The notes under the pieces are model-generated. The model was not told the origin of the DNA. It saw nothing but the letters and a program-made list of their open reading frames with translations, and searched no databases. Below are positions 14,949-17,099 of a DNA stretch of 31,354 bases, one piece after another (the first letter of the stretch is position 1; each line of letters begins with the position of its first letter). Made by a program: the position numbers and the translations under genes. Source of the DNA: a virus (taxonomy: Duplodnaviria > Heunggongvirae > Uroviricota > Caudoviricetes); the IMG/VR virus record IMGVR_UViG_2802429225_000007, positions 1-31,354 of that record; one strand, 5' to 3'.

Positions 14949-16184
14949 TCAGAATTTCCGTTCTTTCCAGCGTTTAACCAACGCGGCCATGTTCAGCGGC
15001 CATAATTTAGGCTCAATCACTTTGCCTTCAAACATCGCGCCGAGCTCAATACCTGGGGCAAAATGTACGGTCATTGTTTCAGGGTTGACGGCCATCAGCT
15101 CTGCGTCTAGTAAGTCGTGTATCGTTGGAGTCAACAACAGGCCATTATCAGCGCTAAAATTGCCTGAGGTAGCTGGCTCAATGTGCGCCGCTTGCAATCG
15201 TTCGCCGTTCTGCCAGCCAGTCACCGCGCAACGGCCAGCAAAATTATTCCATACCCATTCAACAAACTGCATATGCGCCGTCGCGTCGCGCTGCTCAACG
15301 ATGCGCTGCGCGGTTCGGGTACTGTGGAGTTTGACAGGTTGGCCAAGTGCGGGCGCGGGTTTCTCTTCCTCCACGACGACCACTACTTCCTGCGACATGA
15401 TGATTCGATCATCGGCTACCAGTTCCGGAACAACGTCGGCCAGCTTCTCGGCTTCTCGGATGATTTGCTTTTCTTCCTGCTCATCCAGGTACCGCTGCAC
15501 CAGTTCAATGGTCGTGGTGGCTTCATGCTGGTGTTTGTGGATATAAAGCTCAACATCACGACGCTGGCTGGCTGGAATGTGTTTTGCCAGAAAATCCTGT
15601 AGGACGCGATTATCCAGCTTTGTCGTAACTTTTGATGTCATGCTCACAGAATCATACCGTTTCGGTGTTTCCATCTGCGTTGATTGCAGGCCTGGTAATT
15701 CGGTGTTGATTTGAGCGGAAACCTTGCGCGGGATGATTGTCGGCGTAAATGCTGGCGTGCTGGCCTGGGACGTGCCACGGCGACGGGCATTCTCCCAAAG
15801 GGCTTCTGTTTCAGGGTTTTTGCGTGCGCCTGGCTTTTGCATAGGCATAGTGCGAATCAGCGCTTCCCAGCCCATATTGACCTTCTGTTTGGCCTCGCGG
15901 CGTTTATCGGCCAGCGTAGGTTTTGATGGTCGTTTTTTGGAGAGCGCTTTCTCTGGTTTTAACTTGATGCCGCGCGATAAACCATTTATCAGCGTTGGAT
16001 GCACTGATAAGGCTTTGGCCAATTGCAAACCGTTTAAATTGCTGCCATCTGTATAAGCGTACATAAACAAATCCGCCCAGCCATCATGTTGAGGGGTCAT
16101 ACCCACGCTGGTTAAGGCTGCGCGAATCTCTTTTTTGCGAGCTTTGTCCAAGTTAAATTTTTGGGTTTTATTTCGCTTAGTCAT
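14949..16184 (-). CDS. HNH-endonuclease-domain protein with basic N-terminal region
   Basis: C-terminal CAVTGW...AAHIEP...NGLLLTPTIHDLLD resembles an HNH nuclease motif; 411 aa. Confidence 0.55.
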   Translation of the reverse strand: MTKRNKTQKFNLDKARKKEIRAALTSVGMTPQHDGWADLFMYAYTDGSNLNGLQLAKALSVHPTLINGLSRGIKLKPEKALSKKRPSKPTLADKRREAKQKVNMGWEALIRTMPMQKPGARKNPETEALWENARRRGTSQASTPAFTPTIIPRKVSAQINTELPGLQSTQMETPKRYDSVSMTSKVTTKLDNRVLQDFLAKHIPASQRRDVELYIHKHQHEATTTIELVQRYLDEQEEKQIIREAEKLADVVPELVADDRIIMSQEVVVVVEEEKPAPALGQPVKLHSTRTAQRIVEQRDATAHMQFVEWVWNNFAGRCAVTGWQNGERLQAAHIEPATSGNFSADNGLLLTPTIHDLLDAELMAVNPETMTVHFAPGIELGAMFEGKVIEPKLWPLNMAALVKRWKERKF

Positions 16185-16295
16185 TTCAGTTCAGCACACT
16201 AATAATGGTAACCGTGACCGCGGCAAACACGATCCCCGAAATATGCATTACTGCAGTATATTGGCTACGATCTAAAATCCAGTCTCATTCCGAAA

Positions 16296-17099
16296 TCAAA
16301 ATCCGGGAGAATATCTCACAGGAGACATAGCACCTTTCTTTCTGAGGTCATCAGGGATCTTCTTACCTAAATAAAGCTGTGTAATCTCAGGAGGTGCAGC
16401 CCTACCCCGGAACCCAAATCGGGAACTTTGAGTAGCTTCAAATTCATCATCCGCGTCCCATGAGAGTATCTCTGGGAAATTCTCACGGGTAGACTTGAGC
16501 CACTCATCTGCGATATATACGCCCCTCACAATTCCTCTTACTGTCGCCAGTATGACCTCAGCCTTACGAGCGCGTTCAAGGCTGACACGCCAGCTAAAAC
16601 GTACAGCATCATAGAGGTCAATATCCTTTGAGCTCCTGTTAACCGATATCATTAGGGTTTTATGTTGGAACGTAATTGTTTCAGGTTGGTACGTAGCGAT
16701 TAGTTCTTTGATGTGTGCAGCACCGAACTCGTTACTACCAGCACCGTTCATGATGTTAGTCAAGCCGGGATAGGCGTCTATGAGTGCTGCTTCAACTTCG
16801 TAAGCCGTCTTTTCTTCAGCTATACCGTGCCGATGTATAACATGGATAACTTCAAGACCAGCTAATCTGATCTCTCGAAGTTGTTTGAGTTTGTTACTCA
16901 GTAACTCATCATCATCCACTGCAGCAACCTCACCACGCATATGGGCAAAGACACGATTACCTTTCCCTTTCCCTACGTAGAACGTACTGCCATCTCTCGG
17001 GTCAATCAGGCGGTAGACATACCAGCCAAGATGTTCGATTACTCCCGCTGGAAATTCATTAATATCCATATAATAATACCTGAAATTTAACCGTTTCAT
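16296..17099 (-). CDS. GIY-YIG nuclease-domain protein
   Basis: N-terminal [29 protein letters not shown] matches the GIY-YIG signature; true start may be the internal ATG at 17069 (AGGT upstream). Confidence 0.6.

Follow-up and report, generated by a model that had tools for sequence, protein, structure and literature searches.

A CMoRE restriction gene and a rare HNH nuclease gene are probably independent modules of a prophage cargo slot

Two nuclease genes lie side by side in a viral DNA of 31,354 nucleotides (positions 1 to 31,354 of IMG/VR record IMGVR_UViG_2802429225_000007; this whole stretch is called the window), and their arrangement raises the question of whether they work as one system. 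Both open reading frames (ORFs) are present on the minus strand, 14949..16184 encoding a protein of 411 aa and 16296..17099 one of 267 aa. A sequence-only reading had picked out this pair, had proposed that the genes could be homing endonucleases or the nuclease effectors of a defence system, and had taken their adjacency to be meaningful. Our best explanation, to which we give a probability of about 0.7, is that they are two independent single-gene nuclease modules that came to stand side by side by cassette shuffling in an accessory slot (approximately 14213–21450) of a lambdoid prophage, the GIY-YIG gene being the known restriction gene CMoRE and the HNH gene a stand-alone nuclease. What this analysis establishes is the membership of the first gene in CMoRE, the independence of the two genes, and the nature of the HNH gene as an intact, selected nuclease of restriction type; the mode of action of CMoRE is taken from the literature.

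We assign the GIY-YIG gene with near certainty to CMoRE, also known as PD-T4-3. The N-terminal signature seen in the sequence-only reading (YVYRLID...YVGKGKGNR) occupies residues 27–49 of the ORF and is matched by Pfam LEM-3_GIY-YIG (PF22945; E = 7e-13). A domain search of the non-catalytic regions, which had been suggested for both proteins, gave a full-length match in this one: the PADLOC model for PD-T4-3 (PDLC04031) aligned over positions 1–254 of 256 (E = 7.9e-138), and from its eleventh residue the protein aligns end to end with crystallised CMoRE (PDB 9U7U, E = 5e-165; 9U75, E = 7e-152). Identity is 93.8% to CMoRE of UTI89 (UTI89/APEC O1-type) and 86% to the O157 protein. The structural features defined by Liu et al. 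(Nat Commun 2026; PMC12923530) are all found. The GIYxY-YIG motif (GWYVYRLI...TFYVGKG) keeps Y17, Y19 and Y31, the negatively charged autoinhibitory loop DDDE lies at residues 52–55 of the 257-aa protein, and V92 and L96 of the tetramer interface are conserved, as is Y127, which contacts 5-hydroxymethylcytosine (5hmC). R80 is also conserved, and the alignment is unbroken to the C terminus. The ratio of nonsynonymous to synonymous substitution rates (dN/dS) of the gene is 0.08–0.09. Because the RefSeq proteins of UTI89 and E24377A and the crystal constructs begin at MDINEF, the true start is almost certainly M11 of the ORF, at window position 17069 and not 17099; the gene would then span 16296..17069 and encode 257 aa, and the 10 additional in-frame codons upstream are probably not translated.

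CMoRE is a single-gene type IV restriction enzyme that cuts the 5hmC- and glucosyl-5hmC-containing DNA of T-even phages, with cleavage at CN11/N9G; it works as a tetramer, acts by direct immunity and lowers the plating of T2, T4 and T6 by about five logs (PMC12923530). PD-T4-3 was first found by Vassallo et al. in 2022 (PMC9519451), a second group has described modification-dependent cleavage by a distant family member (bioRxiv 10.1101/2025.02.28.640651), and a third has found PD-T4-3 to be active in its native host (PMC12409345). The window protein would be expected to act in the same way: the C-terminal domains of a tetramer would bind 5hmC or glucosyl-5hmC, the GIYxY-YIG domain would cut between two modified cytosines and directly destroy incoming T-even phage DNA, and the acidic loop would keep the enzyme off unmodified host DNA. 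Compared with CMoRE of APEC O1 and O157:H7, the protein aligns end to end and shows no substantial difference; we regard it as a new allele, located in another prophage slot, and a prophage location is shared with many homologues. In UTI89, a gene for a 629-aa DUF262 (GmrSD-like) protein (locus L002, 7826–9715) lies 1 kb from the solitary CMoRE gene at the ssrA island. The DUF262 family likewise has glucosyl-hmC DNA as its target, so two anti-T-even enzymes are stacked at this island.

The second gene (14949..16184, minus strand) encodes a solitary HNH_2 nuclease with an orphan N-terminal region. The HNH-like motif read at its C terminus is genuine: AAHIEP...NGLLLTPTIHDLLD lies at residues 332–360, and Pfam HNH_2 (PF13391) matches residues 319–367 with 34 bits against a gathering cut-off of 21 (E = 2.6e-8). 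The nuclease domain spans residues 296–411 (14952..15299, minus strand) and has the beta-beta-alpha-metal fold; in 23 relatives the catalytic residues H334 and H356 are invariant and N347 is nearly so (at least 90%). Its closest solved relatives, by PDB profile match and by fold matches, are the type IV enzymes TagI, VcaM4I and McrA. Pairwise dN/dS is 0.21–0.32 for the whole gene, 0.21–0.31 for the N-terminal region and 0.12–0.14 for the nuclease domain, and from the overall values we infer that the gene is functional and selectively maintained, not decaying.

The remainder of the protein, the non-catalytic region of residues 1–295 (15300..16184, minus strand), is indeed long and basic, with 50 lysine and arginine residues against 35 aspartate and glutamate residues; in residues 76–190 these numbers are 24 and 10. 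We modelled the protein using AlphaFold2 (AF2). With 11 sequences the HNH domain was modelled too poorly, and a Foldseek search with that model gave only noise; an alignment of 23 sequences mended the nuclease domain of the model but not the linkers. The model of the N-terminal region shows a helical bundle at residues 4–72 (predicted local distance difference test score (pLDDT) 80–88), a disordered basic linker at 72–191, a helical hairpin at 192–251 and then a second disordered linker. Scans of Pfam, NCBIfam and PADLOC returned no domain in residues 1–295, and fold searches gave no match reaching beyond the nuclease domain. An exhaustive HMMER search with residues 1–290 against 1.84 billion representative proteins found no relatives outside the HNH family: it returned the family's own representative, two fragments and two weak matches, both of which end in HNH_2. 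This result offered no function that might be transferred to the N-terminal region. The PHROGs matches were to two families of unknown function only and carried no annotation of the non-catalytic region. The family as a whole is rare. Its full-length form makes up 5 clusters among 5.8 billion proteins, with only 18 relatives found even by profile search; a scan of one genome per species returned no full-length member, only distant relatives of the nuclease domain, and we found no description of the family in the full-text literature searched.

Known enzymes with this nuclease domain differ from the HNH protein in the parts that surround it. The type II enzymes AlwI, BbrI and HphI belong to the same Pfam family and to His-Me finger group 6 (PMC5714182); they are modular, with recognition outside the His-Me finger, and act with a cognate methyltransferase. 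No methyltransferase was found among the scanned ORFs of the window, in the RefSeq annotation of a near-identical prophage or in the neighbourhoods of HNH orthologues, and membership in a type II restriction–modification (RM) system was rejected. VcaM4I and TagI (type IV enzymes of the PUA/EVE–HNH type; PDB 6YEX and 6GHS) and EcoKMcrA (6GHC) have a beta-barrel reader that the HNH protein lacks; in its place are the helical bundle and long basic disordered segments without detectable relatives. Without a PUA, EVE, SRA or similar N-terminal reader of modified bases, the gene was not placed in the TagI/VcaM4I/McrA type, and dependence of the HNH protein on DNA modification is therefore not implied.

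HNH orthologues with 60–65% identity stand alone in four other contexts (loci L006, L008, L009 and L010), and orthologues occur in non-phage islands as well. A complete Lamassu system lies 2.4 kb from the orthologue in L009, and RES-domain genes and a GmrSD fragment are found near HNH orthologues. Relatives with other N termini are present in a P4-like element and in a chromosomal islet adjoining a Fic-domain gene, and lytic phages of Salmonella and Pantoea also encode the nuclease module, in shorter proteins of their early regions. The association of the HNH gene with defence genes is suggestive, not exclusive. The gene also has a former partner. Using the intact L006 protein as a tblastn query, we found that 16192..16260 (minus strand) is a remnant, the last approximately 23 codons, of a gene for a 153-aa FUSC-like membrane protein. 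This gene is intact only in L006 (7538–7999) and L007, where it ends 1 nt before the HNH start codon, and is frameshifted in L008–L010; judged from these alignments, the 77 bp upstream of the HNH start in the window is what is left of it and not a promoter cassette. Purifying selection on the HNH gene persists after the loss of this partner. A downstream lipoprotein or other small gene as a conserved immunity partner was considered and rejected, as L006 and L008 have unrelated genes at that position.

Do the two genes form a unit? CMoRE homologues are present in 966 of 5,426 complete E. coli genomes and the full-length HNH gene in six, the same six that have the whole block; the other 960 CMoRE-carrying genomes are without it. 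Solitary CMoRE genes are found in UTI89, where the site is the ssrA island, and in O157, within a cryptic prophage. The only other locus with the pair is a prophage of Citrobacter freundii, in which a 3-kb block corresponding to window positions 14203–17203 is 91% identical at the nucleotide level and holds CMoRE, the HNH gene and a gene for a 186-aa predicted lipoprotein in the same order (the lipoprotein gene, at 14257..14817 on the minus strand of the window, is 90% identical and was transferred as part of this block). Homology to solitary CMoRE loci covers 16260–17200 and homology to solitary HNH loci covers 14943–16261: the modules abut at 16260/16261. Because the FUSC-like gene is cut at the identical point in the window, in E24377A and in Citrobacter, we conclude that CMoRE was joined to the HNH gene in one event, which truncated this older upstream membrane-protein gene. 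The pair can also come apart. In L053, a viral contig of the same prophage family, a 3.2-kb deletion has removed the HNH gene, the lipoprotein gene and most of LprI, leaving CMoRE and the FUSC remnant. In this deletion derivative (L053, 5402–6400) the FUSC remnant runs straight into the 3′ part of the LprI gene, and a 1-nt deletion has cost CMoRE its stop codon and lengthened it by 9 codons.

Co-occurrence across independent lineages, which would mark a two-gene system, was not found: there is one junction event and each gene is alone elsewhere, and CMoRE behaves as a single component in UTI89, in O157, in the 960 genomes and in the deletion variant. We conclude that the CMoRE and HNH genes are very probably independent and not a two-component system, and the pairing that had looked meaningful in the sequence-only reading reflects a single junction common to E. 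coli and Citrobacter. No terminator-like site was found between the two genes and no promoter-like site in the 111-bp gap, and the HNH gene is therefore probably read through from the CMoRE promoter, that is, co-transcribed in this arrangement. This continuity, the shared strand, and the same gene order in Citrobacter freundii are what one would expect if the two nucleases were one cooperative defence system, for example with each enzyme cutting one strand or with the HNH protein as a back-up when phages inhibit CMoRE; the DUF262 gene beside CMoRE in UTI89 shows that anti-T-even enzymes do stack. We consider such cooperation highly improbable. CMoRE alone protects by about five logs and is single-component in all 274 systems surveyed (PMC12923530), the great majority of CMoRE-carrying E. 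coli genomes do without the HNH gene, and of the six HNH contexts, four lack CMoRE. In E. coli and Citrobacter the pair is one 3-kb block with one junction, not repeated co-selection, and in L053 the HNH gene was lost while CMoRE was kept.

If the HNH gene acts for itself, it could encode a free-standing homing endonuclease, in which case it would be a selfish element that cuts alleles without the gene and so spreads as a unit of one gene. In favour of this, the mobile unit is tight, consisting of the gene and the 77 bp before it, and was found in no fewer than five unrelated contexts; phages often encode HNH homing enzymes, and lytic phages have related modules. Homing is nevertheless very unlikely: the HNH domain belongs to the PF13391 restriction-type clade, neither nuclease has a homing-type DNA-binding domain (NUMOD, IENR1 or AP2), the 77 bp are the remnant of an older gene and not the flank of a target site, and the extreme rarity of the family is unlike a successful homing element. 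Nor does the gene sit between conserved genes. The comparison of related prophages for an empty site, which the sequence-only reading had proposed as a homing signature, turned up no clean one: HNH-less alleles hold other cargo (the prophage of ST131, L025) or the 3.2-kb deletion (L053). The same reading had allowed that both genes might prove to be ordinary terminase-associated HNH or seg-like endonucleases, and they did not. A terminase-associated phage HNH protein is ruled out by the length of 411 aa, by its location some 10 kb upstream of the terminase genes and on the other strand, and by the absence of the gene from related prophages that share the packaging genes. A further possibility, which we regard as unlikely, is that the HNH protein provides no restriction-like defence and serves prophage biology (recombination, DNA processing, or degradation of host or competitor DNA after induction), or that it is the orphaned effector of a former membrane-protein and nuclease module of an abortive-infection or toxin type. 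Three observations fit this possibility: in L006 and L007 an intact FUSC-like gene ends 1 nt short of the HNH start, with remnants in every locus; lytic phages of Salmonella and Pantoea have homologous nuclease modules in their early regions; and no DNA-reader domain is recognisable. Against this, the gene lies in an accessory slot, opposite to the late and early phage operons, and occurs in non-phage islands; purifying selection continues after partner loss; and its distance from the terminase genes and absence from most relatives of the prophage argue that it is not a core phage function.

We thus favour a stand-alone HNH nuclease, presumably directed against phages or plasmids, whose orphan N-terminal region would supply recognition of a target or trigger and which the prophage would carry, like CMoRE, to exclude competing phages. 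Its neighbours include defence genes, namely CMoRE here and in Citrobacter, and cassettes elsewhere that are bounded by the same repeat (below) hold Hachiman, PDC-M60 and PDC-S33. Several observations weigh against a defence function. No curated defence model covers the protein, and the PADLOC matches are weak and confined to the catalytic domain; the AF2 model and fold searches gave no PUA, SRA or EVE reader fold in the N-terminal region; and the same nuclease module in the early regions of lytic phages means that it is not exclusive to defence. A solitary HNH nuclease without a methyltransferase has no obvious means of sparing host DNA. The former, translationally coupled membrane-protein partner is degraded in most loci, and the present function of the HNH protein may differ from the ancestral one. 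Finally, guilt by association rests on about six independent contexts only. Weighing these points, we predict a defence role for the HNH gene at a strength that leaves the question evenly balanced. The earlier proposal of defence nuclease effectors therefore holds for the GIY-YIG gene and may plausibly extend to the HNH gene.

The window is a lambdoid prophage, and a 97–98% identical prophage occupies the mtfA/tRNA-Ser site of E. coli E24377A, in keeping with the location in prophage cargo that had been read from the sequence. The two nuclease genes are positioned between the replication genes and the Q antiterminator, and the AT-rich island noted beside them is real, with a G+C fraction of 0.30–0.38 across 17000–20000. 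The flanks of the ST131 prophage match the window up to 14212 and again from about 21190/21450, while 3.8 kb of unrelated genes lie in between, including one for an ImmA/IrrE (CapP-like) protein. The matching flanks around a different interior indicate that 14213–21450 is an exchangeable cargo slot and not a set of homing insertions. In the ST131 slot (L025, 4112–7950) the ImmA/IrrE protease has 162 aa and is similar to CapP (E = 2e-25), and two further proteins are encoded in the same interval, one of 201 aa and one of 232 aa, the latter weakly matching a DRT-associated membrane protein.

A repeat of approximately 80 nt divides this slot. Three copies on the plus strand lie at 17177..17248 (repeat families D1–D3; nhmmer 62.7 bits), between the CMoRE cassette and that of a 455-aa gene, at 18884..18958 (72.6 bits) and at 20077..20157 (77.3 bits). 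Weak half-copies on the same strand mark the left edge (14179..14210; nhmmer model positions 5–36, E = 0.11) and the right edge (21182..21213; E = 0.017). At the left one, homology to the ST131 prophage stops (14212), as does that to the Citrobacter block (14203); at the right one, homology to the ST131 prophage resumes at 21190. The repeat splits the slot into four cassettes, one of which consists of the lipoprotein, HNH and CMoRE genes, and the first copy contains the module breakpoints seen in the window (17200, 17203, 17225 and 17246). The consensus, nTnTTAnCAACGTCCGCTTnTGGCACGnAGCGGACAAG..CTGAAGGTCCGCTGTGAGCGAGGAGCGGACATT, contains four GTCCGC/GCGGAC half-sites, a near-invariant TGGCAC motif and an invariant GAGCGA motif.

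The same repeat recurs at other loci (L009, L010, L024–L028 and L036–L061). L009 and L010 share exactly 5997–9337 at 99.3% identity, from repeat to repeat and including the HNH gene, and are unrelated outside it. The repeat flanks Lamassu in L009, separates Hachiman from an FRG-domain gene at the thrW island, and in viral contigs flanks PDC-M60ABC, PDC-S33 and another CMoRE. Copies within one locus almost always have the same orientation, and a copy is detectable by blastn in about 600 of 5,426 E. coli genomes, always intergenic. These positions suggest that the repeat marks the edges of exchangeable gene cassettes, many of which are defence systems. It has no match to an Rfam family, and across 36 copies neither possible hairpin topology shows covariation in the form of compensatory changes; on these grounds we take it for a probable conserved site of protein binding or recombination, not for a structured RNA. 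Identity with attC was rejected by eye, as the R-box consensus did not fit, and no description of the repeat was found in the literature searched. It may be a dedicated site of recombination or no more than portable homology. The boldest interpretation would be that the HNH protein is a stand-alone anti-phage nuclease with a new kind of N-terminal sensor and that the repeat is a dedicated, integron-like exchange site for defence cassettes (CMoRE, Lamassu, Hachiman, PDC-M60, PDC-S33 and HNH) in enterobacterial prophages and genomic islands; we mention this as a tentative and rather unlikely combination.

The other cassettes of the slot hold single genes. At 17396–18763 (plus strand) an AT-rich orphan gene in its own repeat-bounded cassette encodes a 455-aa protein with no match in Pfam, NCBIfam, PADLOC or PHROG. 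Some 600 E. coli genomes have the gene at about 90% identity. It adjoins a type I RM system and DarTG in O157, is 4 kb from the HNH orthologue in L010, and is a candidate defence gene. On the minus strand, 19100–19762 encodes a 220-aa multi-pass membrane protein (30% GC), and 20241–20753 a protein of 170 aa whose match to phrog_19541 is confined to the C-terminal part of that family; the E24377A counterpart is annotated as longer, 259 aa, and the window gene may be a truncated copy. Outside the slot, 9821–10972 (plus strand) encodes a protein of 383 aa whose C-terminal domain is that of a pore-forming colicin (PF01024; E = 3.5e-45), and the adjoining 11000–11344 (minus strand) a colicin E1-type immunity protein (PF03526). 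Both genes are in an insert at about 9510–11590 that is absent from the E24377A and ST131 versions of the prophage, and they look like a prophage-borne bacteriocin and immunity pair.

The slot resembles the hotspots of P2 and P4 (Rousset et al. 2022) and the small prophage defence clusters (Vassallo et al. 2022) in being exchangeable at a fixed position of the backbone. As in known prophage defence hotspots and morons, it holds one to a few unrelated defence genes and its cargo varies among related prophages. Unlike the P2 and P4 hotspots, it belongs to a lambdoid prophage, is flanked by the replication/LprI genes and the Q region, and is subdivided by the repeat.

The finding is for the most part an ordinary one, a known defence gene beside a rare uncharacterised nuclease in a prophage defence slot. 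The GIY-YIG gene can be annotated with confidence as a known and structurally characterised enzyme, about which nothing new was learned. The case of CMoRE and the HNH gene warns against taking two adjacent nucleases as the sign of a two-component system. Single-gene nuclease candidates such as the HNH gene are common; it is a reasonable candidate for defence screens, being intact, under purifying selection, found repeatedly among defence genes and absent from current defence databases. The exact module boundaries, together with the recurring repeat at those boundaries, show how the defence cargo of prophages is assembled from single-gene cassettes.

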